From NCBI GenBank assembly GCA_903916765.1, contig CAIWXV010000014.1, positions 1-41,996 of the forward strand: a DNA stretch of 41,996 bases, read 5' to 3'. The notes below the pieces were generated by a model. That model was not told where the DNA came from. It made no database searches and was given only the letters and a program-made list of their open reading frames with translations. Made by a program: the position numbers and the translations under genes. Positions 23,621 through 38,945 of the stretch are shown piece after piece. The stretch comes from an uncultured Dehalococcoidia bacterium (GTDB lineage Bacteria; Chloroflexota; Dehalococcoidia; Dehalococcoidales; Fen-1064). The first letter of the stretch is position 1; each line of letters starts with the position of its first letter.

Positions 23621-23649
23621 TTGACGATTTGTGTCGGGCGAAGTAGAAT
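23621..23649 (+). promoter_or_regulatory. Promoter for the two-component pair
   Basis: TTGACG-17 nt-TAGAAT; it overlaps the GTG at 23631, which favours ATG 23664 as the start. Confidence 0.65.
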
Positions 23650-23663
23650 TTAGGCGTAACTTT

Positions 23664-24884
23664 ATGAAAGAAGAATCTAAAACTAAAGAACAACTGATAA
23701 AAGAACTCGGTGAACTCCGTCAGCGTGTTACCGCACTGGAAGCTTCGAAAAGCCAGATGAGGCGTGATGAGGAAATTGTCCGAATTTTCAGAACCAGCAC
23801 ACCTATCGGACTTTTTATTGTGCAGGACGGTAAATTCAAGTTTGTTAATGAATATTTCCGTAGTGTTACTGCCGGTAGCCCGAATGAACTCATTAATACC
23901 GACTCTATGAATTTGGTTCATCCGGACGATAGGGAAACAGTGCGGGAGAATGCTATCAAGATGCTTAAGGGTGAGGGTTACTCACCGTATAAATATCGTA
24001 TTCTCAGCAAAGACGGCAAGATAAGATGGCTTCTGGAAGGCGTGGTTTCTATCCGTTATCAGGGCAAACGTGCCGTTCTGGGGCATTCGATGGATGTCAC
24101 GGAACGTGAGTTGGCACAGGCGAAACTGGAAGAAGCCTATGAGAAAGAGCATAGACTGCGCCACGAATTGGAAGCCGAAGTCCAGAGAAGGGTCGAATTT
24201 ACCCGTGCCTTGGTACACGAGTTGAAAACCCCGTTGACACCCATTATGTCTTCCAGTGACCTGCTTGTTAGCGGTATCAGGGAAGAGCCTTGGTTGAGTG
24301 TTGCTCAAAATATCCAGCGCGGTGCTATTAATCTGAACAGGAGAATCGGCGAGCTCCTTGACCTTGCCAGAGGCGAAATCGGTATGTTGCGCCTCAATCC
24401 GAAGCATGTTGATGTGTCTCAGTTACTGAGTCAGGTCGGCAATGAAATGTCGGTGGTGGCTTCCAGTAACGGGCTATCTTTGAAGGTTGAGTTATCTCCG
24501 TCTTTGCCGATGGTTTGGGCGGATGAAGACCGTCTGAGGCAGATAGTACAGAATCTATTGATTAATGCTACAAAATTTACTCCTGAGGGAGGTACGATTT
24601 TTCTAAGAGCCCGAACAGAAAATAATGCTTTCGTTGTAGAAGTTAAGGATACTGGGCGCGGAATACCGACAGAAGAACAGAGAAGATTATTCCAGCCTTA
24701 TTACCGGCAGTTGAGTGATCGTGAGCATCTTAGCGGATTAGGGTTGGGATTAGCATTGTGTAAGAATCTGGTGCAATTGCACGGCGGTAAGATATGGGTA
24801 CAAAGCCAGGAGGGTAAAGGGGCTACCTTTGCCTTTTCCATCCCGATATCCCCACTCGGTCATCAGGCGGGCATCACTACTTAG
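23664..24884 (+). CDS. Cytoplasmic PAS-domain sensor histidine kinase
   Basis: N-terminal coiled coil, PAS/PAC (VHPDDRE..DGKIRWL), H-box HELKTPLT, N-box NLLINATKF, DTGRGI, GLGLGL; no transmembrane segment. Confidence 0.93.
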   Translation: MKEESKTKEQLIKELGELRQRVTALEASKSQMRRDEEIVRIFRTSTPIGLFIVQDGKFKFVNEYFRSVTAGSPNELINTDSMNLVHPDDRETVRENAIKMLKGEGYSPYKYRILSKDGKIRWLLEGVVSIRYQGKRAVLGHSMDVTERELAQAKLEEAYEKEHRLRHELEAEVQRRVEFTRALVHELKTPLTPIMSSSDLLVSGIREEPWLSVAQNIQRGAINLNRRIGELLDLARGEIGMLRLNPKHVDVSQLLSQVGNEMSVVASSNGLSLKVELSPSLPMVWADEDRLRQIVQNLLINATKFTPEGGTIFLRARTENNAFVVEVKDTGRGIPTEEQRRLFQPYYRQLSDREHLSGLGLGLALCKNLVQLHGGKIWVQSQEGKGATFAFSIPISPLGHQAGITT

Positions 24885-24894
24885 GAGATAGATT

Positions 24895-25575
24895 ATGAAA
24901 GTTCTGGTTATCGAAGACGATAAAGAAATTGTGGATGCGATATCGCTGGCTTTCCAGATTCGTTGGCCCGAAGCAAAGGTAATTTCCACACGACTCGGAC
25001 AGAAAGGTGTGGAGTTTGTGGAAACTGAGCAACCGGATATTGTCATTCTCGATTTGGGGTTACCTGATATCACCGGCTTCGAAGTGTTACGTCAGATAAG
25101 GCGTTTTTCTGCTGTTCCTACGATTATTCTTACTGTCAGAACCGAAGAAGCTGATGTTGTTAAAGGATTGGAGTGGGGAGCGGATGATTATATCACTAAG
25201 CCTTTCCGTCAGCTGGAACTGCTCGCTCGTGTTCGTTCCATGATTCGTCGACACACTCCGTTGGAAGAGAGTAATCTCACTTTCGGTCACTTGCAACTCA
25301 ATACGGATACCGGACAATTGTATATGAATGATAAAGAGATTGCATTGACCGTTACAGAGAATCATATTCTCGGTTATCTGATGAAAAATGCCGGACGTGT
25401 CGTTACCCATTCCAATTTGGCTGAAGCAGTTTGGGGCGATGATTACCCCGGTGCTACGGATAGTTTGAAAGTTCATATCCGCCGTCTGCGTGAGAAGATA
25501 GAGCAGGACCCGGGGAAACCCCGTATTATTCTTACCAAGACGGGAGTCGGTTATTTTCTAGCTAAACCCGAATAG
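24895..25575 (+). CDS. OmpR/PhoB-family response regulator
   Basis: IEDD, LDLGLP, GADDYITKPF, winged helix LKVHIRRLREKIE..TKTGVGY. Confidence 0.95.
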   Translation: MKVLVIEDDKEIVDAISLAFQIRWPEAKVISTRLGQKGVEFVETEQPDIVILDLGLPDITGFEVLRQIRRFSAVPTIILTVRTEEADVVKGLEWGADDYITKPFRQLELLARVRSMIRRHTPLEESNLTFGHLQLNTDTGQLYMNDKEIALTVTENHILGYLMKNAGRVVTHSNLAEAVWGDDYPGATDSLKVHIRRLREKIEQDPGKPRIILTKTGVGYFLAKPE

Positions 25576-26017: not shown

Positions 26018-26887
26018 TTACAGTTTCTCAGTTATCTTGTACATATTCTCGTAAGCACTACGAAAATCAGGATCGGTCTTTTCCAATCTCTCCCTCAGTA
26101 GATTCATCCTTTTGGCAAAACCCTGCTTATCTTTTTTCCTCACCATATCAGCCCAGATTTCAGTATTAGTGTGGAAAAGTATTTCGATATTATTGATATT
26201 GGGGAAGTTTATTTGCAGTGAAGCATAAAGTTGCGGGTCTTCCGAAATAACGCTTTCTATCAGGGTATATAGCACTTTGAAGGTAGTGCCTCCGATTTTT
26301 TTCATCTCCTGGAATTTGTTGAAGCTGAGCAGAGTGTCAGCAGAGACGATGGCAATGAAATGTGTCAGCCCCAGCACTATCGTCATCATTTCGTCGTGTT
26401 CTTGCGGAGTCATAATAGAAACATTGGCATTTCTGGTGTCAAGCAGTTTTTTAATCTTATCGGCTAAAGCAGACTCATATTTATTGGTGGGAGTGAGTAT
26501 AATGTTCTGTTTTGCCACATCTTTAGCACCAGGCCCGAATACCGGATGTGTTCCCAGTACCATACCTTCTGTGATGTAACGGTGCATTATTTCGACGGGT
26601 CGTGATTTCAACGATGTGACATCTATGATAATCTGTTGTTTATTGGTGTGAGGCGCAATTTCTTTAACTACCGATTCGAAATTATCGAGAGGCACCGATA
26701 TGATGATAACATCTGATTGTTTGACGGCGTCGATATTTGTGGCAATTGGCACTCCCAGTTCTTTCCCTGCGGAGAGTAATTTCTCATGGTTACGGCCGGT
26801 AATAACTACCTGCATCCCTTCTTTCAATAGGTAGCGTGCAAACCAACGCCCCATGTTACCTGAACCACCGATTATGGCTATCTTCAT
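26018..26887 (-). CDS. tyrA: Prephenate/arogenate dehydrogenase
   Basis: GGSGNMG, DVTSLK, THPVFGP, EHDEMM..LTHF. Confidence 0.93.
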   Translation of the reverse strand: MKIAIIGGSGNMGRWFARYLLKEGMQVVITGRNHEKLLSAGKELGVPIATNIDAVKQSDVIIISVPLDNFESVVKEIAPHTNKQQIIIDVTSLKSRPVEIMHRYITEGMVLGTHPVFGPGAKDVAKQNIILTPTNKYESALADKIKKLLDTRNANVSIMTPQEHDEMMTIVLGLTHFIAIVSADTLLSFNKFQEMKKIGGTTFKVLYTLIESVISEDPQLYASLQINFPNINNIEILFHTNTEIWADMVRKKDKQGFAKRMNLLRERLEKTDPDFRSAYENMYKITEKL

Positions 26888-26909: not shown

Positions 26910-27977
26910 TTACATTGCTTTAGGATAAGAGCCGAGAACTTTCAGGAATAAGGTATGCTTTTCCAGTCTATCCAGCGTATCTTTTACAATCTTGTCCTGA
27001 TGATGTCCTTCGAAATCAAGGTAAAAGTTGTATTCCCATGCTTTTTGGCGGGTAGGGCGTGACTCGATTTTGGTCAGATTTATTTTACTATCGGAAAATT
27101 CTTTGAGTGCTCCATAAAGTGCCCCCGGTTTATGTTTTACGGAAAAAACGATGGAGGTCTTATCTTTACCCGTCGGCGGTGAATCATTCTTTGCAAGGAT
27201 GAAGAAGCGCGTAAAATTATTCGGGTTATCTTCGATTTCACGGGCGAGAATCTTCATCCCGTAAATTTCTGCTGCACGGGCAGAGGCAACAGCCGCACCG
27301 TCGAGGATACCTTTCTCTTTAATAAGTTTGACACTACCGGCAGTGTCGTAGGTTGGAATCAGCTCGCAATTTAGGTGTCTTAGAAATGTCTGACATTGCC
27401 CCAGCGCTTGAGGATGAGAATATATCTTTTTGATGGTATCGAGATTTGCCTCGTGATTAGCAATCAGGCAGTGGACGATTCTCAGTTCCAATTCTCCGCA
27501 GACCTTGAGACTTGATTTCAATAGCAAATCATAGACACGACTGATACTTCCTTCCAGTGAATTTTCAATCGGTACGATGCCGTAGGATACCTCGTCTTGT
27601 TCAACGATTTTGAAGACGTCATCGAAGTTTTCACAGGGTTTGGCATGGGCAGCATTGCCGAAATGTTGAAAAGCCGCCTCTTCACTGTATGCTCCAATCT
27701 CACCCTGGAATGCTACCACTGTTCCCTGTACACTTTTGGAAGATTTAATAATTTGCTGGTAAATACTTTCGATTTCCTTCTCTTCCAGATTTAAGGTGCG
27801 GGCGATCTCTCTGATGTGAGCAAGCACCTTTGCCTCGCGGCTGGGGTCATCAATCGGTTTTCCCTGTTTCTGTTTTTCCTTGCCGATTTCTTGTGACTGT
27901 CTTATCCTTTCGGCAATAAGCCTCACAATTTGCTCATCGGTTCCATCGATTTTATTTCTCAGTTCTTCCAGACTCAT
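26910..27977 (-). CDS. pheA: Bifunctional chorismate mutase / prephenate dehydratase
   Basis: [11 protein letters not shown] (AroQ), [35 protein letters not shown]-domain ESRP. Start moved to ATG 27977 (SD GGAGGT). Confidence 0.95.
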
Positions 27978-29066
27978 TTGATTACCTCCGGGATAAGTCT
28001 TGCTCTCAAAGCAAAGTCGCATAGAGTGATTGCCATCATTGCCGAAACGACAGGTATCGCTCTGGGAACGATACAAACATCATGCCTGCCCTTAATTTCC
28101 AGTTCAGCATTTTTCATGGTATCGATATTAACGGTCGATTGTTTTTGACTGATGGATGGCGTTGGCTTTACAGCGACTCTGACGACGATAGGCATACCGT
28201 TACTGATACCGCCCAGAATACCGCCGGCATTATTGGTGGTGGTTAAAATCTTGCTGCGTTTGATAGTAAAGGGGGTCGTTGTTTTCCGAGCCTTTTTTAT
28301 TGGCTGCGGCAAAGCCGGTGCCGAATTCAACTCCTTTGACTGCCGGGATAGCAAATAGCGCCTTTGCCAATTCTCCTTCCATTGTATCGCAGACAGGTTC
28401 GCCCAATCCGGCCGGAATATTCAGGGCGATGCCCTCGATAATACCACCGAGGCTATCCCCTTCTTTTCGTGCCTGCTCGATAGCTTTCAACATTTTTTCT
28501 GTGGCTTTGGGGTCGGCACATCTGAGAGGATTTTGCTCGATAGCGTTTTTGATTTCGTCCATGTTTTTTGTATGTGCTTTGATACCGCCGATTTCTAAAG
28601 TATGGGCAATAATCTCGACTCCGAGCATATCGAGTATTTTTTGGGCGATTGCACCTGCCATTACGTAGCCAGTTGTGATTCTACCCGAAAATCTGCCGCC
28701 ACCTCGAAAATCGTTAAATCCGCCGTACTTCATAAATGCCGTGTAGTCGGCATGTCCCGGGCGGAGTAGGACTCTGGCTTTCTCATAAGCATCGGAGTCG
28801 CTATCCTGATTCCAGACGAGAAGGCAGATAGGGGCGCCGGTGGTATGCTTGTCGTAGATACCTGACAAAATGTCCACCTTATCCTCTTCGGCTCTTTTGG
28901 TGGATGCTGCTCCTGTCCCCGGTTTTCTTTTATTTAATTCGGTTTGAATATCTTTCTCACTAATCGGCAAACCTGCCGGACAGCCGTCAATGACAACGCC
29001 GACACATTTGCCGTGACTTTCTCCGAAACTGGTGGCGGTGAATATTTTACCCAAACTATTACTCAT
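27974..29066 (-). CDS. aroC: Chorismate synthase, split by a +1 frameshift at the G5 run 28271-28275
   Basis: [19 protein letters not shown] in the first frame; [23 protein letters not shown] in the second. Removing one base restores NDPFTIK. Confidence 0.92.
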
Positions 29067-30321
29067 TTAACTTCACTCTCCCTCCCAGTTTTTTGAATAC
29101 TTCCCAGAACTCCGGATAGGTTTTAGTGACACATTCCGCTTGCTCGATAACCGTTTCTCCGGCTACTGAACCCAGTAGGCTGAATGCCATCGCAATACGG
29201 TGGTCGTTATGGCTGGTAATCTGTGTCCCTTTCGGCTTTTTACCGGTAATTGCCAGTAAATTTGATTCCTCAGTAACGGGGATCCCCATTTTTTCTAATC
29301 CGGCTCTGAGGGAAGTGACCCTATCCGATTCTTTAATTCTTGCCCGTTCGATGCCAGTAAATTCACTTGTACCCTCGGCTACCGCTGCTAGCACTGCCAC
29401 TGTCGGTAGCAGGTCGATGCAGTCATTCAAGTCTGCTTTAATTGCCTTCAGTTTCGACTGCCTGACGATGATGGAATTACTGCCTACGGTAACAACTGCC
29501 CCCATTTCTTGCAGGAAACGGATTATCATCCGGTCGCCTTGAAGACTTTCGGTATCGAGATTATTGACTTCAACCTCGCCTGACAGTGCCCCCAATGCCA
29601 GCAGGTAGGAAGCTGAGGACCAATCGCCTTCCACTCTGAATTTTGTCGGCTTATATCTCTGGGGCAATATCTCGAATTCATCGAGATTATCGTTGAAAGC
29701 CACTGTGATGCCGAACCATTGCATTGTATCCAGAGTCATTATGACGTAAGGTCGTGACTCCAGCGGAGAAGTCAATTTGATAACCATACCGTTTTCGGCA
29801 AATGGAGCGACTTGCAGTAATGCCGAAACAAATTGGGAACTGATATTACCTGGCAAACTTGTAGTGCCGCCGTTCAGTTTACCACCGTTTACGGTTACGG
29901 GTGGCAATTCGTTATTACTCGAACAGTCGATACCCAGTTGTCGCAGAGCATCCAGTAATGTTTTTACGGGTCTTCGTGACAGGGACGGTCCGGCAGTAAG
30001 ATGACTGGTTCCTGGAATGATGGAGCAGATGGCAGTCATAAAACGCAAAGTGGCGGCAGAGTCGCCACAAAATAGGTCTTCCTTGGTTGCGTGGAAGTTT
30101 CCGCCATCGACTAACCAGTTATTTTTCTGCTGTCGGATGCTAATGCCTATCTTTTTCAGTACGTTAGTAGCGGCAATAGTATCATCGGAAGCTAGCGGGA
30201 AGGCAATTGTGCTCTTACCGCTTGCAAGTGCCCCGCATATCAAACCGCGGATGGTGTAACTCTTGGACGATGGTGCGGTTACTTTACCGGCGATTTCACT
30301 TTTGGAAATCGAAGCCTTCAT
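29059..30321 (-). CDS. aroA: EPSP synthase
   Basis: [46 protein letters not shown]. Confidence 0.96.
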
Positions 30322-30832
30322 ATGATTTCAACCTGTCGATTATTTCATTGGCAACTGCGTTAATATCCAATTTCGAGGTATCAATAGTAATATCTGCGCT
30401 TCTTCCATAAAAAGGTTTTCTGAATTTCATCAATTCTTTTATGTGCTTCGACGGGTCATCGACATCGAGGAGAGGACGACTACCTTGCTTATGGGAAATC
30501 CGTTTCAAAATTGTTGCCGGTGAGGCAGTGAGATTGACAATGACACTGTTCTCTCTCAAACGGTCGATGTTGATGGTGTTTAAGACGACTCCGCCGCCGC
30601 AGACAATGACTTTCCTCTTCTCTCTTGCGGCATTTTTAACTGCCTCGATTTCAAGTTCGCGGAAGGCAATCTCTCCGTTATCGCGGAAAATGTCTGCAAT
30701 AGGCTTTCCTGCTTTCCGTTCGATAATCGAGTCTATCTCGACCACCCGGCGGTTCAGTTTTTTTGCCAGCATCTGCCCGACGGTTGTTTTGCCCGTGCCC
30801 ATAAAGCCAATCAGAGCGACATTACTTTTCAT
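30296..30832 (-). CDS. aroK: Shikimate kinase
   Basis: GFMGTGKTTVG, GEIAFRELE, CGGGVV, RPLL. Confidence 0.95.
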   Translation of the reverse strand: MKSNVALIGFMGTGKTTVGQMLAKKLNRRVVEIDSIIERKAGKPIADIFRDNGEIAFRELEIEAVKNAAREKRKVIVCGGGVVLNTINIDRLRENSVIVNLTASPATILKRISHKQGSRPLLDVDDPSKHIKELMKFRKPFYGRSADITIDTSKLDINAVANEIIDRLKSYEGFDFQK

Positions 30833-31700
30833 TTTTCTGTAATAACCTCATTGCCGATTGACGCATCAGGTCGACGGGAGGTTTTTGTCCGGTCCATTTT
30901 TCAAAAGAAAGCGCACCTTGACAGACCAGCATTTCCAGACCGTCGATGGTTCTGGCACCTGCCGTTTTTGCTTCTTGCAGGAGTCTGGTCGGGAAGGGGT
31001 TGTAAATAATATCGAAGACAACCATATTCGAACAAAGAAACTCTGCATCTACCGGTGTCTCGTGGCTGTTCGGGCTCATTCCGACGCTGGTGGCATTAAC
31101 CAGAATATCGGTATTTGCTAGTACCTGCTCTAAGTTCTTTTTGTTCAATTCATCGGCTCGGACATTGATGGTGTAGTTTTGTTTGATGCGATTTGCAATA
31201 TCTTGTGCCCATTCCAATTCCAGTTTGCGATTAAGTATGACCAGACTGACGCCTTGTTCTGCCAGAATAAAGCAGATGGCTTTTGCAGCTCCGCCTGCTC
31301 CTAGTACCAATATCTTCTTTCCAATGGGGTTAATGTCTTTCTCCAGTAAAGCTTGTATAAATCCATATGCATCCGTATTGTAACCAGTCAGGATGCCTTC
31401 GTCATTGACGATAGTATTTGCAGCGCCGATTTTCTCTGCCAGAGGGTCAATCTTGTCCAGCAATTGCATTACAGCTACCTTATGAGGGATAGTCACGTTA
31501 AGCCCTCTGATATTCAGTGCTCGGGCTCCTGCGATAGCTTGTTTTAGTTCTTCGTTCTTTACCTTGAAGGGCAAGTAAACATAGTCCAACCCCAGCGTTT
31601 TGAAGGCTGTGTTGTGCATTACGGGCGACATCGTGTGTTCGATAGGGTCGCCGATAATGCCGCAGATTTTTGTCTTGCCGGATATTACCTTATCTTTCAT
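30822..31700 (-). CDS. aroE: Shikimate dehydrogenase
   Basis: HTMSPVMHN, NVTIPHK, GYNTD, GAGGAA, DIIYNP. Confidence 0.96.
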   Translation of the reverse strand: MKDKVISGKTKICGIIGDPIEHTMSPVMHNTAFKTLGLDYVYLPFKVKNEELKQAIAGARALNIRGLNVTIPHKVAVMQLLDKIDPLAEKIGAANTIVNDEGILTGYNTDAYGFIQALLEKDINPIGKKILVLGAGGAAKAICFILAEQGVSLVILNRKLELEWAQDIANRIKQNYTINVRADELNKKNLEQVLANTDILVNATSVGMSPNSHETPVDAEFLCSNMVVFDIIYNPFPTRLLQEAKTAGARTIDGLEMLVCQGALSFEKWTGQKPPVDLMRQSAMRLLQKNEK

Positions 31701-32353
31701 ACCGTCAGCATCTCATAAAATTTGAGCATTTCGGTTACCGGTAACTGTCCCGGTGCGGATTCCTTACCTTTCTGCACGGCGCCGTAGGTAAAATCAGCTC
31801 CAAACATCGGAGCCATGACACGGCTCATTAATCCCTGTTGCCCCATCGCAAAGGCAATCATTCTTGTCTTAGGAAACTCGGTAATAAGTTTCAGGATGGT
31901 GAGATTATCTTCGAATTCTTTGGCGGTAGTCACTATCTTACAGATGTCTGCCCCGGCTTTTAATTCGCTTTGAACAATTTGCCTCAGAGTATCCAGAGGA
32001 GGAGTTTTTTGAAAATCGTGGAAGGATAACAGGCATAATGCCCTTTTCCTAACAAACTGGATAATATTGCCGACATTCTTAGCACTGTATTCGATATCGA
32101 CAATTTGTGCTCCTAGTTCTATTGCCTGAAGTAACCTCTCGATTCTTCTTGCTTCATTACCATCCCATTTCCCGCCTTCTTCGACCATGCGATTGCAGGC
32201 AATCCATGGTTTTTTCAGTTGACGGGCAATTTCGGTCCAACCGTCACCGATGAGGTCGATTCTGACTTCGAACAAATCAACCAGGGGCTCGACTTCTTTC
32301 ACGGCTTTAATGTCGGTATTGATGATACTGGCGCAAAGTTTTAATTTCTTCAT
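31697..32353 (-). CDS. aroD: Type I 3-dehydroquinate dehydratase
   Basis: EVRID, SFHDFQKTP, ADICKIV, FAMG..G..SR, SAPGQ. Confidence 0.94.
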   Translation of the reverse strand: MKKLKLCASIINTDIKAVKEVEPLVDLFEVRIDLIGDGWTEIARQLKKPWIACNRMVEEGGKWDGNEARRIERLLQAIELGAQIVDIEYSAKNVGNIIQFVRKRALCLLSFHDFQKTPPLDTLRQIVQSELKAGADICKIVTTAKEFEDNLTILKLITEFPKTRMIAFAMGQQGLMSRVMAPMFGADFTYGAVQKGKESAPGQLPVTEMLKFYEMLTV

Positions 32354-33432
32354 TTCAATTCCACCAGAATCCTTTCTATCAGAGCAGGGCTTACATCATC
32401 GGTGATAAATACTTCACCGATTGACTTCGGCAGGATAAATCTTATCTTTCCTCTCTGGACTTTTTTATCGAATTGCATCGCCTGCATTATTTGTTCTATT
32501 TCTAATCGAGGTAACACAGTCATCAATCCGGCTTTTTTGAGTAGCTTCGCCAGTCTTATAACAGCTTTAGAATCGACAAGACTGAGTTCAGCAGCAATCT
32601 TTACTCCTGCCATCATTCCGATGCCGACTGCTTGACCGTGGGCAATCTCGAAATTGGAAACCGATTCGACTGCATGTCCGACAGTATGTCCGAAATTGAG
32701 GATATTCCTCAAACCCATATCCTTTTCATCGTTTTCTACAACTCCCGTCTTGATTCGGGCGGACTTGGTAACAATTGTTTCCAGCACATTATCATCTAAC
32801 GACTTAACCGGGTCAAGGTTTTTTTCGAGGTAAGTGAAAAATTTCTCGTCCCTGATAACTGCATATTTGATAACTTCACTGAGTCCGTTAACAATCCCGG
32901 CAGACGGCAAAGTTTTCAGAGTGGCAATGTCTGAAATTACGGTTCTCGGTTGGTGGAAAGCTCCGATGTTATTCTTTAACTTACCGTGGTTCACAGCAAC
33001 TTTTCCGCCGATACTGCTATCCACCTGTGCCAGTAGGGTGGTGGGTATTTGCACCAGTGGAATTCCTCTCATATAAGTGGCGGCAACAAATCCCGCCAGG
33101 TCACCGATAACACCACCGCCTAGTGCCAGAATGGGCGTTGTCCTTTCTGCTCCGAATTCCGTTAGCTGGTGATACAATTTACCTGCCGATTCCAGGGATT
33201 TGTACTCTTCGCCGTCGGGAACTGAGAGTATCGTTACCCAGAAACCCTCATTGATGAGGCTCTGTTTCAGGCTGGTACCATACAGTTTTTTGACAATAGG
33301 ATTAGTTATGATAATTGCCTTATCATTAAATCCCATTTCTTTTAATATCTGCCCAGTTTGGCTAAGAGTGCCGGAACCGATGCGGATATCGTAACTGTTT
33401 TGTCCCAGATTGACCCTGATTGTTTTCACCAA
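32350..33432 (-). CDS. aroB: 3-dehydroquinate synthase
   Basis: DGEEYKS, GGGVIGDLAGFVAATYMRG, PTTLLAQVDSSIGGK, LNFGHT. Confidence 0.97.
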   Translation of the reverse strand: MVKTIRVNLGQNSYDIRIGSGTLSQTGQILKEMGFNDKAIIITNPIVKKLYGTSLKQSLINEGFWVTILSVPDGEEYKSLESAGKLYHQLTEFGAERTTPILALGGGVIGDLAGFVAATYMRGIPLVQIPTTLLAQVDSSIGGKVAVNHGKLKNNIGAFHQPRTVISDIATLKTLPSAGIVNGLSEVIKYAVIRDEKFFTYLEKNLDPVKSLDDNVLETIVTKSARIKTGVVENDEKDMGLRNILNFGHTVGHAVESVSNFEIAHGQAVGIGMMAGVKIAAELSLVDSKAVIRLAKLLKKAGLMTVLPRLEIEQIMQAMQFDKKVQRGKIRFILPKSIGEVFITDDVSPALIERILVELK

Positions 33433-33439
33433 GTATTAA

Positions 33440-34504
33440 CTAGCCTCCGTTTTGTTTTATGCCAATCGCTTTATGTATGCCCTGACAAGCAGTGATGAGT
33501 TCCTTCAATTCGTCGGGTGTGATTTGTTGCTGGCTGTCTACCAGTGCCTCTACCGGATTATGATGCACTTCGACTATCAAGCCACAGGCACCGACAGCAA
33601 CACTCGCACAGCTCAGGCTGAAAATCAGGTCTCGTCGCCCTGCCGCATGACTAGGGTCGACAATCACCGGTAGGTAGGTCTCTTTCTTTAGAACTGGCAC
33701 TGCCGCCAGGTCAAGCGTGTACCTAGTATAACTTTTACCCTTACCCAATGGCAAGATACCCCGCTCGCAGAGAATGATATCTTTGTTTTCTTCTGCCACC
33801 ATATACTCGGCGAAGGACAGGAATTCTTCAATACCAGCGCCGAAATGACGCTTGTAAAGTATCGGTTTGCCTGTTCGAGCAACTTTGACGAGCAGGTCCT
33901 GGTCGTACATATTTCTGGAGCCAATCTGAATGATGTCTACATATTTGGCTACCAGATCCACTTGCGATTCACCTCTGATTTCAGTAACGACAGGCAATTC
34001 GAATTTGTTGCCTGCTTCGCGGAACCACTCCAATGCTTCAGTTGCTTCCTCTTCTCCTGCAGAGCCCAGTCCCTGGAAGGAGTGAACGGAAGAGCGTGGC
34101 TTGAAGATGCCACCCCTTAGCATTTGAGCGCCGGCTTTCTTAACGCCTTCGGCAATTTTGAAAAGTTGCTTTTTACTTTCCACTGCGCATGGTCCGGCGA
34201 TGAAAACCAGTTTATCCCCGCCGATTTCAACATCACCGACCTTGATGATTCTTCGCTCGCTTTCGCCTGTGAGTTTGGCATATTCACGACTGATTAGTTT
34301 ATAAGGTGTCTCGACCATCCTTGCCTCCTTTACTCCCGGTAATATAGCAAAGTGGTCAAACGGTATTTTGCGCTCATCACCGATAAGTCCGATGATGGTG
34401 CGAAAAGCTCCTTGAGAGACATCGGCACGCAGTCCGTGGCTTTCTATTTCCTTGATAACTGCGGCAATCTGTTCTTTAGTGGCATCGCTCTTCATGATAA
34501 TCAT
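33440..34504 (-). CDS. aroF: Type I-beta DAHP synthase with an N-terminal ACT-like regulatory domain
   Basis: MIIMK..TIIGLIGDE N-terminal domain, AGPCAVES, FKPRSS..SFQG, LCERGI, VDPSH. Confidence 0.93.
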   Translation of the reverse strand: MIIMKSDATKEQIAAVIKEIESHGLRADVSQGAFRTIIGLIGDERKIPFDHFAILPGVKEARMVETPYKLISREYAKLTGESERRIIKVGDVEIGGDKLVFIAGPCAVESKKQLFKIAEGVKKAGAQMLRGGIFKPRSSVHSFQGLGSAGEEEATEALEWFREAGNKFELPVVTEIRGESQVDLVAKYVDIIQIGSRNMYDQDLLVKVARTGKPILYKRHFGAGIEEFLSFAEYMVAEENKDIILCERGILPLGKGKSYTRYTLDLAAVPVLKKETYLPVIVDPSHAAGRRDLIFSLSCASVAVGACGLIVEVHHNPVEALVDSQQQITPDELKELITACQGIHKAIGIKQNGG

Positions 34505-34540
34505 TGCTTTTCTCCTGTTTTGTAGTTTTGTTGAGCATAT

Positions 34541-34575
34541 AAAAAGAAGAACCCTCTGCTTAAGAGGGCTCTTCT
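34541..34575 (-). terminator. Attenuator terminator of the aro operon
   Basis: Minus strand AGAAGAGCCCTCT-TAAGC-AGAGGGTTCTTCT followed by a T run. Confidence 0.9.
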
Positions 34576-34628
34576 GATTTCTAACTTTGGAACTATCTGT
34601 TTCAGTCTATTTTTTTGCACAACGCCTC

Positions 34629-34694
34629 TCAAGCACTTTTCGTGCCCCAAAACGCGAAGTAGTAGTAATAATATCTCTGAGAGACGTTTAACAT
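34629..34694 (-). CDS. aro operon leader peptide, MLNVSQRYYYYYFAFWGTKSA (21 aa)
   Basis: TAT TAT TAC TAC TAC TTC GCG TTT TGG: 8 aromatic codons out of 9, between promoter and terminator. Confidence 0.93.
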   Translation of the reverse strand: MLNVSQRYYYYYFAFWGTKSA

Positions 34695-34702
34695 CAATAT
34701 TG

Positions 34703-34731
34703 AATTTATCATAGGCGAATTATTTTGTCAA
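34703..34731 (-). promoter_or_regulatory. Sigma70-type promoter for the aro leader
   Basis: TTGACA-17 nt-TAAATT with TGn extension; the leader ATG is 8 nt downstream. Confidence 0.8.
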
Positions 34732-34759
34732 ATGTAGCGCGCTCACGAAACACAAATAA

Positions 34760-34788
34760 TTGCACTCACAGCCTCTGGTTGGTATAAT
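34760..34788 (+). promoter_or_regulatory. thrS promoter
   Basis: TTGCAC-17 nt-TATAAT with TGn extension. Confidence 0.7.
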
Positions 34789-34849
34789 TGTACAGTTAGC
34801 CTCTCGTTCCCGGGACGGGTGGGAGGTTTTGTTTCTGTAAGATGATTAG

Positions 34850-36610
34850 ATGGATAATATCGAGAAAGACGAAAAACTGGACATGATGCGCCATTCGGCG
34901 GCGCATGTTATGGCGGAAGCCGTGCAATCGATGTTCCCCGATGCTAAATTTGGCATCGGCCCTACCATCGAATACGGTTTTTACTATGATTTCGACTTAT
35001 CTCGTTCTCTTAGTCCCGAAGACTTGCCGCTCATCGAAGCCAAAATGAAGGAAATTGTGAAAAGTAATTCTCCTTTCCTGAAAGAGATGGTTTCCAAGGA
35101 GCAAGCACGTAAATTATTCGCCAATCAACCGTATAAACTGGAATTGATTGATGAACTACCCGAAGAGCAGGTAACTATTTATAAGCAGGGTAATTTCACC
35201 GATATGTGCCGTGGTCCTCATGTTAGGTATACCTCTGCGATAAAGGCTTTCAAACTGATCACGATTGCCGGCGCTTACTGGCGTGGCAGTGAAAAAAATC
35301 CGATGCTCCAGCGTATCTACGGTGTGGCTTTTAACACCCAGAAAGAGTTGGATGAATATCTCATCCGTCAAGAAGAAATAAAAAAGAGAGACCACCGGAA
35401 AATAGGCAAAGACCTTGATCTTTTCGTGTTTTCTGATTTAATTGGAAAGGGTCTTCCCATTTTCACGGAAAAAGGGTCAGTCATCAGGCGCGAGTTGGAG
35501 CGATTTGTCGTCGATGAGGAAATCAAAAGAGGCTATAAGCATGTCTATACGCCTGATCTGGCGAAGGTTGAGCTCTATAAGACGTCTGGCCACTATCCCT
35601 ATTATAAGGATACAATGTACCCGGTGATGAAAGTAGACGAAGATGAGTTGATGCTTCGCCCTATGACTTGCCCTCACCACTACCAGTATTATGCCAGCAA
35701 ACCAAGGTCATATAAAGAATTGCCTTTTAGAATCGCTGAGTTGGCAAAGCAGTTCCGCTACGAAAAGTCGGGAGAGCTTAGCGGACTTCTGCGTGTCCGA
35801 AGCTTCTGCTTGGCTGATGCACACATTATTTGCAAGTCAGAACAGGCGGTTGACGAGATAATGCAAGCACTCGACCTCATAGAATATGCAGCGAACGTTC
35901 TAGGTTTGAACGCCGGTAGGAGGTACCGTCTGTCCCTGGGTGACCGGAAAGATGAGAAGAAATACTACAAGGATGATGCGGCTTGGGATTTTGCCGAGAA
36001 TGTCTTACGTCGGGTCCTGATACAGAGGAAAGCGAATTTCTTTGAAGCCGGAAATGAAGCGGCTTTTTACGGTCCCAAAATCGATATTCAGATGAAGAAT
36101 TTCGCTGGTAAGGAAGACACCGCTTTTACCGTCCAGTATGACTTCGTGGGACCGAAACGCTTTAAATTGGCCTACATTGACAGCGACGGAAAAGAAAAGG
36201 AACCGATTGTTATTCATCGCTCTTCGATTGGTGCGATAGAAAGAACTATGGCTTTTCTCATCGAACATTATGCCGGTGCGTTTCCCGTCTGGTTGTCACC
36301 GGTTCAAGCAGCAATTATTCCAGTATCTGACCAACATCTGGGTTATGCCCGTAAATTAGAAGCCGAGCTGAAAGCTATTGGTGTCAGGGTAATGGTAGAT
36401 GACCGGAATGAACGTATGAACCAGAAAATCCGCGAAGCTCAACTTCAAAAAATACCTTACATGCTGGTAGTCGGGGATAAAGAATCAGCGGATAACACGG
36501 TATCGGTGCGGTTACGTATCGGAGAACAACTTCCTGTTATGTCTTTTGAGGAGTTTAAGAAGAAAATCAAGCAGGTTATTAACGACCGTGTTAATGAATT
36601 GAAGCCGTAA
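34850..36610 (+). CDS. thrS: Threonyl-tRNA synthetase lacking the N-terminal TGS domain
   Basis: RHSAAH and DMCRGPH (editing), RPMTCPHH, FRYEKSG, AFYGPKID, IHRSSIGAIER, KIREAQLQKIPY. Confidence 0.96.
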   Translation: MDNIEKDEKLDMMRHSAAHVMAEAVQSMFPDAKFGIGPTIEYGFYYDFDLSRSLSPEDLPLIEAKMKEIVKSNSPFLKEMVSKEQARKLFANQPYKLELIDELPEEQVTIYKQGNFTDMCRGPHVRYTSAIKAFKLITIAGAYWRGSEKNPMLQRIYGVAFNTQKELDEYLIRQEEIKKRDHRKIGKDLDLFVFSDLIGKGLPIFTEKGSVIRRELERFVVDEEIKRGYKHVYTPDLAKVELYKTSGHYPYYKDTMYPVMKVDEDELMLRPMTCPHHYQYYASKPRSYKELPFRIAELAKQFRYEKSGELSGLLRVRSFCLADAHIICKSEQAVDEIMQALDLIEYAANVLGLNAGRRYRLSLGDRKDEKKYYKDDAAWDFAENVLRRVLIQRKANFFEAGNEAAFYGPKIDIQMKNFAGKEDTAFTVQYDFVGPKRFKLAYIDSDGKEKEPIVIHRSSIGAIERTMAFLIEHYAGAFPVWLSPVQAAIIPVSDQHLGYARKLEAELKAIGVRVMVDDRNERMNQKIREAQLQKIPYMLVVGDKESADNTVSVRLRIGEQLPVMSFEEFKKKIKQVINDRVNELKP

Positions 36611-36687
36611 CTTGATTATTACGTATAGAATGTATTATATTGAGTTCTGGTAATATACATAAAGCTTAGAAGGGGGAACTACAGCAC

Positions 36688-37248
36688 ATAGTTAAGCCAC
36701 TACGTATCAACAATCAGATAAGGGTTGCCGAAGTTCGTGTCGTCGGTGAGAAAGGCGAACAACTAGGAGTTATGTCCTTAATTAATGCTTTGGACGCTGC
36801 TAGGAAAGCCGGACTCGACTTGATCGAGGTAGCACCCACTGCCGTTCCGCCCGTTTGCCGGGTAACAGATTACGGCAAATATCGCTACGAACAAACAAAG
36901 AAAGAAAAGATTGCCAGGAAAAGCCAAAAGGTCTCCGAACTCAGGGAAATCCGGTTAAGACCTAAAATTGGTGAACATGATCTCGAGTTTAAAGTCCGGG
37001 CAATCAAGAAATTTCTACTAGACGGTGACAAGGTCAGAGTGACAGTGATGTTTCGGGGGCGTGAAATCAGTCACGCTGATTTAGGTTGGAAACTATTACA
37101 AAGAGTAATACAGATATTAGGAGAGGTGGCGGTACTGGAAAAGCAGGCGGTGATGGAAGGGCGGAGGATGTTTATTATTCTGGCGCCGGGCACTACCCAG
37201 AAATCAAAACCAAAGGAAACACAGGATGCCAAAACTAAAGACTCATAA
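36688..37248 (+). CDS. infC: Translation initiation factor IF-3 with a non-canonical ATA start
   Basis: The frame continues 28 codons upstream of ATG 36772 with conserved RINNQIRVAEVRVVGEKGEQLGVM; SD AGGGGG precedes ATA 36688. Confidence 0.9.
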   Translation: MVKPLRINNQIRVAEVRVVGEKGEQLGVMSLINALDAARKAGLDLIEVAPTAVPPVCRVTDYGKYRYEQTKKEKIARKSQKVSELREIRLRPKIGEHDLEFKVRAIKKFLLDGDKVRVTVMFRGREISHADLGWKLLQRVIQILGEVAVLEKQAVMEGRRMFIILAPGTTQKSKPKETQDAKTKDS

Positions 37249-37429
37249 GGGTGCAAAAGCGCGTTTCCATGTTACAGGAAGCGGTAAATTTCTACGGATG
37301 AAGGGCGGCTCGAGCCATCTGCGACGGAATAAGCCGGCGCGGGTCAAGCGTGAGTATAATGATAAATTGCCCATCAGCCCGGTGGATAAGAAGAAACTCA
37401 GCAGGCTGATGCCCTATGCGGGCAAATAG
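37226..37429 (+). CDS. rpmI: 50S ribosomal protein L35
   Basis: MPKLKTHKGAKARFHVTGSGK; position between infC and rplT. Confidence 0.96.
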   Translation: MPKLKTHKGAKARFHVTGSGKFLRMKGGSSHLRRNKPARVKREYNDKLPISPVDKKKLSRLMPYAGK

Positions 37430-37508
37430 TAATTACAGCCTGATAAGTTATTGATAATTTTAGAAGTATCGGGAGTAGGGGCTACTCCCTGTAGTCAGGA
37501 GGGGTATT

Positions 37509-37862
37509 GTGCCACGCGTTAAGAGAGGGGTAACTACACATCAAAAGCATAAGAGTTTATTAGCTCTGACCAAGGGTCATAGAGCTACAAGACATGCTCT
37601 TGTCAAACGTGCTACAGAATCAATGATGAAATCCCTGAGTTATGCTTACGCACATCGTCGTGAGCGTAAGGGAGATATGCGTCGTCTTTGGATTACTCGT
37701 GTTAATGCCGCTAGTCGTTTACAGGGTATGACCTATGGTGAATTGATGGATGGCTTGAAAAAGTCGGGTGTGCGCATCAATCGCAAGGTATTAGCTGATA
37801 TGGCAGTGACACAGCCGGAAGTTTTTGCTGAACTGGTGACTGTTGCCAAAAAACAATCTTAA
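37509..37862 (+). CDS. rplT: 50S ribosomal protein L20
   Basis: MPRVKRG, YAYAHRRERKGDMRRLWITRVNAA, INRKVLADMA. Confidence 0.97.
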   Translation: MPRVKRGVTTHQKHKSLLALTKGHRATRHALVKRATESMMKSLSYAYAHRRERKGDMRRLWITRVNAASRLQGMTYGELMDGLKKSGVRINRKVLADMAVTQPEVFAELVTVAKKQS

Positions 37863-37889
37863 AGACTCCACTACGTATTCAATATTATC

Positions 37890-38945
37890 ATGTTACAGCG
37901 TCTTGACGAACTTAAGCAGAATGCCTTTCGTGAATTGGAAGTCATCAATGACCTTTCCAATTTAGAGTCTTGGCGTGTTCGTTATCTCGGTAGAAAAAGT
38001 GAACTGACCAATATTTTGCGCGGTTTGGCAGAGCTTTCTCTGGAAGAGCGTAAATCTGCCGGCGCTTTAGCCAATCATATCAAAAATGAGCTGGATTCAC
38101 TTCTGAATCAAAAGACAGAATCTTTGAAAGCTGAGTTTCAGAAGCAGGTACTCCGTTCTGATGAATCCCTTGCCGCACGTGGTGATATTACCTTACCCGG
38201 CCGTCCCATTCCGATGGGTCGGTTGCATCCTATCACGGAAACCCTCCACGAAATTTGCGATATTTTTGTTTCGCTTGGTTTTCAGATTATGGAGAGTAAT
38301 GATGCGGAACTCGACTATTATAATTTCGAGGCATTAAATATACCTGAGGAACATCCTGCCCGGGATGATATGTCCACTTTCTGGCTCGATTACGAAGATG
38401 AACGTGGTAAACGTCCTATGCTTTTACGTACTCATACTACCTCCGTCAGTGCCCGTTGTGTGGCGACAATGAAACCACCTATCAGAGTTATCGAACCCGG
38501 CAGGGTTTATCGCTATGAAGCTACCGATGCTACACATCTGACAATGTTCCATCAACTCGATGGATTGGCGGTAGATAAGGGTATCACAATGGCTGACCTT
38601 AAGGGCACTTTCTATGAGTTTGCCCGCCGTTTCTATGGTGATGGTCGAAGAGTGCGTTTCCGCCCCGATTATTTCCCATTCGTCGAACCGGGTGTGGAAG
38701 TAGCTGTGGAGTGTGCTCTTTGTAAGGGTAGCGGTTGTCGGCTCTGCGGTAATAGCGGCTGGATTGAGATCGGCGGTGCTGGTATGACTCATCCCAAAGT
38801 GCTTGAGCGTGGCGGTATCGACCCCAATGAATATACCAGTTTCGCTTTCGGTTTTGGTATCGACCGTATTCCGATGTTGCGCTACGGCATCAATGATATG
38901 AGATTGTTCTTTGGCTCTGACCTGAGATTTTTGAGGCAATTCTAA
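37890..38945 (+). CDS. pheS: Phenylalanyl-tRNA synthetase alpha subunit
   Basis: NFEALNIPEEHPARD, LLRTHT, DATH..FHQ, YFPFVEP, FAFGFGIDR. Confidence 0.97.
   Translation: MLQRLDELKQNAFRELEVINDLSNLESWRVRYLGRKSELTNILRGLAELSLEERKSAGALANHIKNELDSLLNQKTESLKAEFQKQVLRSDESLAARGDITLPGRPIPMGRLHPITETLHEICDIFVSLGFQIMESNDAELDYYNFEALNIPEEHPARDDMSTFWLDYEDERGKRPMLLRTHTTSVSARCVATMKPPIRVIEPGRVYRYEATDATHLTMFHQLDGLAVDKGITMADLKGTFYEFARRFYGDGRRVRFRPDYFPFVEPGVEVAVECALCKGSGCRLCGNSGWIEIGGAGMTHPKVLERGGIDPNEYTSFAFGFGIDRIPMLRYGINDMRLFFGSDLRFLRQF

Follow-up and report, generated by a model that had tools for sequence, protein, structure and literature searches.

A probable ribosome-mediated leader-peptide attenuator with Tyr, Phe and Trp codons ahead of the shikimate operon in Dehalococcoidales

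Introduction

In E. coli, the leaders of trpL, pheL-pheA and pheM-pheST each sense one amino acid and control terminal biosynthetic branches or a synthetase. A leader-peptide attenuator at aroR-aroF of Corynebacterium glutamicum was reportedly described by Neshat et al. in 2014, an account known to us via a review. Here, we describe a putative attenuator of this general kind in a 41,996-nt stretch of DNA (contig CAIWXV010000014.1 of assembly GCA_903916765.1, positions 1 to 41,996; hereafter the window) from an uncultured member of the order Dehalococcoidales, class Dehalococcoidia, phylum Chloroflexota, in which it precedes an operon running from aroF, the gene of a 3-deoxy-D-arabino-heptulosonate 7-phosphate (DAHP) synthase, to tyrA. 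The Dehalococcoidia comprise organohalide-respiring bacteria of use in bioremediation and many abundant uncultured lineages of sediments and aquifers; to our knowledge, very little is known about their gene regulation. The sequence elements of the attenuator, their conservation, the codon-level selection on an aromatic run and the covariation of all helices are established below.

According to the accessible part of PMC11802643, the C. glutamicum leader peptide AroR, with Phe-Tyr-Phe, attenuates the aroF operon and responds to Phe, not to Tyr. Upstream of Acholeplasma aroF lies the motif uORFC-13-1, a candidate upstream open reading frame (uORF) with Phe codons, as described in the part of PMC8632094 available to us. 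A reading of the window from its letters alone (the sequence-only reading) had taken as established that each classical leader responds to a single aromatic amino acid and acts on a terminal branch; this is incomplete in view of what the consulted parts of these two papers say of aroR (PMC11802643) and of the Acholeplasma aroF uORF (PMC8632094). Eight uORF candidates are presented in PMC11109978, two of which are described in its text; an rdhA motif presented there derives mostly from Dehalococcoides species, as far as the consulted part of that paper goes. No description of the present element in Dehalococcoidia or Chloroflexota was found in full-text literature searches; the supplements of PMC11109978, which were not read, could hold one.

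The leader and its alternative structures

The leader is seated between thrS (plus strand, from 34850) and the DAHP-synthase gene (minus strand, ATG at 34504), and all coordinates given for the leader, its helices, the terminator and the operon refer to the minus strand of the window. A sigma-70-type promoter (34703-34731) consists of the -35 box TTGACA (34731-34726), a 17-nt spacer and the extended -10 element TGaTAAATT, with its hexamer at 34708-34703. In a promoter scan it matched 10 of 12 consensus positions, with the TG of the extended -10 present, and transcription is predicted to start 0-4 nt ahead of the leader AUG. TTGACA and a box resembling -10 were also seen by eye, uncounted, upstream of leaders at related loci. 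The leader open reading frame (ORF) has 21 codons plus TGA, encodes MLNVSQRYYYYYFAFWGTKSA and occupies 34629-34694 (ATG at 34694, TGA at 34631-34629). Its codons 8-16 (34647-34673) specify five Tyr, Phe, Ala, Phe and Trp, i.e., eight of nine consecutive codons are for Tyr, Phe or Trp.

Three helices can form around this run. Region 1, the 5' strand of the anti-antiterminator, comprises codons 3-6 (34677-34688; AACGUCUCUCAG as RNA), and region 2 (34621-34634; GCUUGAGAGGCGUU) spans the UGA stop and is the alternative partner of either region 1 or region 3. In helix 1:2, AACGTCTCTCAG (34688-34677) pairs with TTGAGAGGCGTT (34632-34621; UUGAGAGGCGUU as RNA) over 12 bp including two G-U pairs. Region 3 (34558-34567; CCUCUUAAGC) forms the 5' arm and loop of the terminator; in the antiterminator, helix 2:3, it contributes CCTCTTAAGC (34567-34558), which pairs with GCTTGAGAGG (34634-34625, across the stop codon; GCUUGAGAGG as RNA) over 10 bp, one of which is G-U. 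As the third helix, the intrinsic terminator (34541-34575) has a 13-bp stem (34575-34545) containing 6 G-C pairs, a 5-nt loop and a U-run to 34541. Approximately 40 nt separate this U-run from the aroF start, and GGAG sits 8 nt ahead of the aroF ATG. Between the codon run and region 2 lies a small hairpin, GGCAC-GAAAA-GUGCU (34632-34646), which may be an RNA polymerase pause hairpin. Helix 1:2, the small hairpin (34646-34632) and the terminator are all part of the unconstrained minimum free energy fold, whose z-score relative to shuffled sequences is -3.2. Three DNA sequencing runs agree with the window sequence, with minor variants only. The sequence-only reading had proposed both the 21-codon ORF between a TTGACA/TGaTAAATT promoter and a 13-bp terminator, which was confirmed base for base, and the three switch helices, which are exactly as it had them.

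Conservation of the control codons

The aromatic run is beyond chance. Among about 1.77 million stop-free 10-residue segments of the six-frame translation of the 1.37-Mb genome, 2 hold eight aromatic residues and 48 hold seven. This count gives numbers only; the leader itself supplies two overlapping segments with eight aromatics each, RYYYYYFAFW and YYYYYFAFWG.

Conservation of the Tyr/Phe/Trp run upstream of aroF and covariation of the helices, which the sequence-only reading had proposed to look for in relatives, were both found. A protein search of 41 related genomes yielded 30 orthologous DAHP-synthase loci (62-100 % identity), all 30 of which carry a short ORF with start, stop and Tyr/Phe/Trp run 140-240 nt ahead of the gene; the same aromatic ORF is present at further, named Dehalococcoidales MAG (metagenome-assembled genome) loci with full flanks. 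The best 10-residue segment contains five aromatics at 2 of the orthologous loci, six at 7, seven at 13 and eight at 8. Segments with at least seven occur in 21 of the 30 real upstream regions vs 7 of 600 dinucleotide-type shuffles. At distant DAHP-synthase homologues (27-50 % identity; L071-L076, L078 and L080-L087), which come from Anaerolineales, other Chloroflexota, and unclassified and Bacteroidota MAGs, no leader-like ORF was found: the segments with 6 of 10 aromatics at L071 and L078 sit inside an upstream coding frame, and those at L081 and L086, which also reach 6 of 10, were not examined.

In the aligned run of the 30 loci, T occupies codon position 1 in 191 of 232 cells, and at position 3 there are 109 T and 83 C. 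The 231 codons include 122 for Tyr (TAT 60 times, TAC 62 times), 52 for Phe and 12 for Trp. The run thus combines a 3-nt periodicity with free TAT/TAC wobble and is kept at the amino-acid level only, a pattern which, judged from the alignment, is that of codon-level selection. Tyr is present in all leaders and Phe in 29 of 30, and Tyr codons outnumber Phe codons in 25. Trp lies within the run of 20 leaders and, in 6 more, at the start (5' arm) of the hairpin. The proposal that the leader integrates all three aromatic amino acids, weighted toward Tyr, is therefore borne out as to the weighting (Tyr over Phe in 25/30), while the Trp part comes down to one codon, in the run of 20/30.

Outside the run the peptide is poorly conserved. 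Its length ranges from 19 to approximately 35 residues among the orthologous leaders, the stop position and the residues outside the aromatic run vary, and other conserved "residues" (SQ.., ..CAWEV) fall on RNA helices. In relatives, the stop codon lies 5-30 nt past region 2, with GCU UGG GAG being read as A-W-E, so that a ribosome running through the leader would still cross region 2.

Covariation of the helices

Pairing was assessed in an alignment of the 30 orthologous sequences (A1), with controls in which the pairing partners were slid. The structure of the terminated state is paired in 83.2 % of cells vs 40-56 % when slid, and 17 of its 28 pairs change on both sides. For helix 1:2 these values are 78.7 % of cells and 6 of 11 pairs, and in the terminator helix both-side changes were found in 7 of 11 outer pairs and in both of the 2 inner pairs. 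The antiterminator is the best supported of the three switch helices: 96.3 % of its cells are paired vs 31-59 % slid, with both-side changes in 4 of 10 pairs, and over 54 family members 95.1 % of cells are paired, with both-side changes in 6 of 10 pairs. Its compensatory changes include GCUUG:CAAGC to GCCUG:CAGGC at positions of the terminator loop, which are constrained by the antiterminator alone and by no other structure. In alignment A2, 85 % of the cells of the small hairpin are paired vs 9-65 % slid. The most conserved stretches of the element are this hairpin, GCUUGGGAGG and CCCUCYCAAGC.

Proposed mechanism

We consider the element to be a ribosome-mediated leader-peptide transcription attenuator of the aroF-aroB-aroD-aroE-aroK-aroA-aroC-pheA-tyrA operon, with a probability of roughly 0.85. 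Leader translation, stalling, the ribosome footprints, the role of the hairpin in pausing and the points of transcript start and stop are here inferred, and events would run as follows. Transcription would begin at the leader AUG or a few bases before it. If the leader is not translated, or if the ribosome reaches the UGA inside region 2, region 2 would be bound by region 1 or covered by the ribosome. With region 2 occupied, region 3 would pair with region 4, the 13-bp terminator would form and RNA polymerase would halt before aroF. When charged tRNA-Tyr is scarce (less often tRNA-Phe, marginally tRNA-Trp), the ribosome would stall in YYYYYFAFW, where it would cover region 1 or keep it off region 2, leaving the latter free. 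Region 2 could then pair with region 3 as soon as this emerges, so that the 5' arm and loop of the terminator would be occupied and polymerase would read through into the nine genes. The attenuator would most plausibly sense mostly Tyr and then Phe, the Trp input being the weakest part of the reading.

Constrained folding is consistent with this order of events. The predicted duplex energies are -16.4 kcal/mol for helix 1:2, -16.9 kcal/mol for helix 2:3 and -20.1 kcal/mol for the terminator. In a fold with no ribosome, helix 1:2 forms first and then the terminator. When a ribosome mask is placed at Tyr8, Tyr12 or Trp16 and the transcript ends at the terminator loop, helix 2:3 forms; with the ribosome at the UGA stop, region 2 is covered and only the terminator forms. 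Since the terminator is the thermodynamically favored fold, the choice between the two states has to be made kinetically.

Several observations weigh against this reading. At -20.1 kcal/mol the terminator is more stable than the antiterminator, which has -16.9 kcal/mol and encloses a loop of about 55 nt, so that read-through hinges on kinetics. Region 1 lies 5' of the control codons, and late stalls, from Phe13 to Trp16, leave it uncovered; that such a stall would block helix 1:2 is a steric argument only. Upstream of the window leader there is no Shine-Dalgarno sequence, and the AUG is 8 nt past the -10 hexamer, so that translation would need leaderless or near-leaderless initiation. A motif resembling Shine-Dalgarno precedes an in-frame start in 18 of the 30 orthologous leaders, the window leader not being among them, and several others seem equally leaderless, judged by spacing; the codon-level selection on the run argues for translation nevertheless. 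In the most divergent sequences helix 1:2 aligns badly, and at some of its pairs 6-14 cells are unpaired; the shuffle controls, for their part, ignore kinship, which leaves the support to the slid controls and the compensatory pairs. No RNA run is listed as containing the stretch, and one metatranscriptome, available as contigs and from the sample of a DNA data set that does contain it, covers none of it and is uninformative on expression. Finally, the Trp input amounts to a single codon vs five Tyr and two Phe, and in the source MAG, which is 96.6 % complete, trpA (PF00290) and the indole-3-glycerol phosphate synthase gene (PF00218) were not found and trpB stayed below the cut-off.

Role of the Trp codon

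These last points are shared by the alternative that comes closest to the reading above, namely, a real ribosome-mediated switch that senses Tyr and Phe only, the single Trp codon having no regulatory role, whether as a relic or kept for another reason. The source genome may then not make Trp at all, and the Trp branch of its relatives may be separately controlled. We regard this alternative as a serious possibility, if a less probable one than the reading above. Besides the codon numbers and the apparent lack of Trp genes, it is favored by the distribution of the codon: Trp is in the run of 20 of 30 leaders only, and the 6 further instances fall on the hairpin's 5' arm, a place at which UGG might be required for pairing of the RNA. 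The Phe-Tyr-Phe leader AroR of C. glutamicum, which according to the accessible part of PMC11802643 responds to Phe, not to Tyr, also illustrates that the presence of a codon is no guarantee of a response. Against it, the Trp codon stays within the run while its position shifts (YYW..., ...FAFW, FWY...), which argues that the residue, and not an RNA position, is under selection; it is equally kept in relatives with and without detectable trpA, and chorismate is the precursor of Trp wherever the Trp branch exists.

The relatives offer some insight into how Trp synthesis itself is controlled. One complete Dehalococcoidales genome has a T-box match of 98.8 bits, above the gathering score of 93, at positions 4230-4497 of L206 (G032:C1:1347000-1360000). 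It lies before a trp operon of the order trpE-G-D-C-F-(DAHP synthase)-B-A, the trp names being taken from ORF order and size. This operon thus has its own DAHP-synthase paralogue behind the T-box, and trpA, found in 30 of the 41 relatives, is beside a second DAHP-synthase paralogue in several of them, both of which favor a leader confined to Tyr and Phe. The small same-genus genomes G002 and G004 have no trpA match either, and members of 2.1-2.8 Mb do have trpA; one possible explanation is that a reduced sublineage has lost the Trp branch. Most plausibly, the common-pathway leader reports Tyr and Phe, and the Trp codon is conserved, with a putative role.

Switches without a ribosome

A terminator/antiterminator switch could in principle be worked by a protein, a tRNA or a small ligand, the ORF being incidental. 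The missing Shine-Dalgarno of the window leader would suit such a switch, as would the fact that the most conserved stretches (hairpin, GCUUGGGAGG and CCCUCYCAAGC) are RNA elements and that the trp operon of relatives is under a T-box. The family searches do not bear this out. With an E value of up to 10, an Rfam 15 scan of 34300-35000 gave sub-threshold matches only (OrzO-P 24.5 bits vs 60) and no match to the T-box (RF00230), even though the trp T-box of the relative was detected in the same way. The window leader scored 21.2-21.9 bits against Phe_leader (RF01859; gathering score 55) and 14.9 against Thr_leader (RF00506; 55). At 20 related loci, scanned with E up to 0.01, no leader family was found and the sole match was an unrelated molybdenum cofactor (Moco) riboswitch. 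Moreover, the element has no conserved unpaired pocket or junction such as a ligand aptamer needs. An incidental ORF is also hard to reconcile with an unpaired run that has 3-nt periodicity, free synonymous wobble and conservation at the amino-acid level only, with an open frame with start and stop at 30 of 30 loci, and with the change of codon identity with the regulated gene in the paralogues described below. We therefore think a switch of this type improbable.

Still less credible is a functional aromatic micropeptide whose hairpin is merely its own terminator, with aroF read from a separate promoter: the ORF is conserved, the terminator is strong and about 40 nt lie between U-run and aroF start, but the peptide varies from 19 to approximately 35 residues, in its stop and in all residues outside the run, its other conserved residues coincide with RNA helices, a promoter scan shows no site between terminator and aroF, the terminator loop covaries with region 2, needlessly for a plain terminator, and the element is tied to aromatic-pathway genes.

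Distribution and re-coded copies

A covariance model of the element (R1) was searched in samples of 151 genomes each for the order, the class and the phylum. In the order, it was found in 131 of 151 genomes and in 74 of the 82 high-quality ones; among the best 30 matches, 28 adjoin a DAHP-synthase gene. The class sample gave 16 of 151 genomes, 8 of which are outside the order. Five matches from these 8 genomes were examined, and all five are ahead of DAHP synthase and have Y/F/W leaders. In the phylum sample, 11 of 151 genomes had matches, none outside the class, and each family tallied beyond the class gave 0. In one Dehalococcoidia genome from outside the order, a Moco/tungsten riboswitch (67.8 bits; L146:1228-1347, minus strand) adjoins the aromatic attenuator.

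Many genomes contain 2-4 matches. Twenty secondary places in other Dehalococcoidales genomes (L124-L143) were read alongside the second match in the source genome. They have a common scaffold, consisting of region 1, a codon run, the hairpin, GCUUGGGAGG and the CCCUCYCAAGC terminator, and are followed by several kinds of genes. Before pheS the leader is rich in Phe, e.g., FQFNFNFMF, and before class I/II aminotransferase genes it is of the Tyr/Phe type. A copy before genes for a coenzyme A (CoA)-transferase III and a 2-hydroxyacyl-CoA dehydratase subunit carries F-V-F and is followed in tandem by a second attenuator with a Tyr run. The copies ahead of AMP-binding ligase genes are of two kinds, with either a Tyr run or F-I-F. 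Mixed Tyr/Phe/Trp leaders were seen before a gene resembling that of octopine dehydrogenase (MSFYTAWPGVYYTAFIF...) and before a DAHP-synthase paralogue with chorismate mutase (...SQDWFFSYYF...), and a mixed Tyr/Phe leader (...SQKYTCFIF...) precedes aroB. The second copy in the source genome (contig C51, 17539-17705, plus strand) has the Phe-type leader MSVAVYRLENFKFIFTTRTRCACGW and lies ahead of a gene for a 647-residue AMP-binding protein (L118). Read by eye from their translations, the genes past it resemble those of the permeases, binding protein and ATPase of a Liv-type ABC (ATP-binding cassette) transporter, and the operon may serve the uptake of an aromatic amino acid or aryl acid.

Using a core model without the codon run (R2), two copies were found in the source genome and 2-5 in each of five others, and all real copies have an aromatic leader. 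Versions of the scaffold with non-aromatic codons were not found by this model in the six genomes, where its weak matches are plain terminators. Weaker R1 matches in the source genome (on C20, C44 and C48; E 0.006-0.2) seem to represent terminators unrelated to the element or a small ORF of unclear status. The "aspC motif" of PMC11109978 was considered as a paralogue linked to aminotransferases and set aside: the consulted part of that paper describes it as a junction of three stems in which few nucleotides are conserved, unlike the present element; the comparison is with the description only. A Phe-rich short ORF before pheS was found at 1 of 30 order-level pheS loci examined (L176), so the copies linked to pheS (L135 and L143) are sporadic.

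That codon content changes from one regulated gene to the next while the RNA chassis stays the same argues, more strongly than any other indirect evidence, for the codons as the sensor. By extension, the Dehalococcoidia might possess an aromatic regulon without a protein regulator, in which one duplicated attenuator scaffold is re-coded in its leader for each target and the Trp branch is left to the T-box; we give this extension about an even chance. In such a regulon, mixed leaders with Tyr over Phe over Trp may control the common shikimate operon, Phe-only leaders may control pheS and the operon of AMP-ligase and ABC transporter, and Tyr runs or Tyr/Phe leaders may control aminotransferase, CoA-transferase/2-hydroxyacyl-CoA dehydratase and acyl-CoA ligase genes. 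Translation of the leader may be nearly leaderless in several lineages, the source organism included.

The regulated operon and its neighborhood

The first regulated gene (33440-34504) encodes an AroF-type DAHP synthase with an N-terminal ferredoxin-like regulatory domain (PF00793, 6.5e-67; PF18152, 9e-20). Identified by Pfam and likewise on the minus strand, it is followed by aroB (32350-33432), aroD (31697-32353), aroE (30822-31700), aroK (30296-30832), aroA (29059-30321), aroC for chorismate synthase (28230-29066 and 27974-28354), pheA for a chorismate mutase-prephenate dehydratase-ACT protein (26910-28076) and tyrA for prephenate dehydrogenase (26018-26887). Neighboring genes in this compact series of nine either overlap or are separated by no more than 26 nt. 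The order of nine genes from DAHP synthase to tyrA that the sequence-only reading had given was upheld by Pfam, with the qualification that aroC is read in two frames in the assembly (profile positions 1-249 and 248-327), owing to a frameshift or to an error in the assembly of the MAG. The source genome comprises 149 contigs (1.37 Mb). Among named records, the closest are MAGs assigned to Dehalococcoidales, Dehalococcoidia or Chloroflexota, and the DAHP synthase of a Dehalogenimonas MAG is 66 % identical.

On the other side of the leader, thrS, infC, rpmI and rplT (the latter two by position) and pheS follow one another at 34850-38942 on the plus strand in an order like that of E. coli. The window's own pheS (37890-38942) comes directly after rplT and has no Phe leader ahead of it. 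About 20 nt upstream of the thrS start and on its strand, a terminator-like hairpin (34798-34828) of 12 bp is followed by TTTTGTTTCT; it has no Rfam family match and might be a thrS leader element. Just past tyrA, the opposite strand (23631-25575, plus) encodes a PAS histidine kinase together with a response regulator of the OmpR type.

Comparison with known systems

The mechanism proposed here is a textbook one, with a precedent in Corynebacterium for a leader of mixed aromatic codons before a DAHP-synthase gene. The element is a well-supported new case of this class and ordinary in mechanism; what makes it of interest is its lineage, its predicted near-leaderless start and its reuse across a putative aromatic regulon. 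Control of the whole common aromatic pathway coupled to translation would extend ribosome-mediated attenuation to the Chloroflexota. Annotators gain an RNA element and a small ORF, both overlooked at present, and the natural series of re-coded leaders on one scaffold lends itself to testing codon number and identity against the specificity of attenuators. The near-leaderless leader, if confirmed, would be an unusual start for an attenuator peptide.

Like trpL, pheL and pheM of E. coli, the element follows the four-region logic of 1:2, 2:3 and 3:4 pairing, has its stop codon in or close to region 2, ends in an intrinsic terminator and contains codons for the end products; some relatives have a copy of the scaffold, with Phe as the only aromatic residue of its leader, ahead of pheS, the position of pheM in pheM-pheST. 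The element differs in that region 1 is upstream of the control codons instead of containing them and in that the RNA seems nearly leaderless. There is no homology to pheL, the score against Phe_leader being 21 bits vs the gathering score of 55. The T-box (RF00230) likewise reads tRNA charging, chooses between terminator and antiterminator and controls the trp operon in a relative; unlike the present leader, to which it has no match, it binds uncharged tRNA directly, measures approximately 220 nt and needs no ORF.

Acholeplasma uORFC-13-1 is also a candidate uORF directly ahead of aroF and beside an intrinsic terminator, for which sensing of an aromatic amino acid via the speed of translation was proposed in the consulted part of PMC8632094. 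It belongs to the Mollicutes, has Phe codons only and, as presented there, is itself a candidate. The nearest functional counterpart is aroR-aroF of C. glutamicum, in which mixed aromatic codons also precede an operon that starts with DAHP synthase and in which, according to the accessible part of PMC11802643, stalling raises transcription. It belongs to another phylum, and that part of the paper gives it three control codons, vs eight here, with no Trp codon among them. Whereas AroR responds to Phe and not to Tyr (PMC11802643, same part), the Dehalococcoidales element is dominated by Tyr. Unlike aroR-aroF, the Dehalococcoidales leader precedes an operon for the whole common pathway plus pheA and tyrA, and the likeness between the two is functional only.

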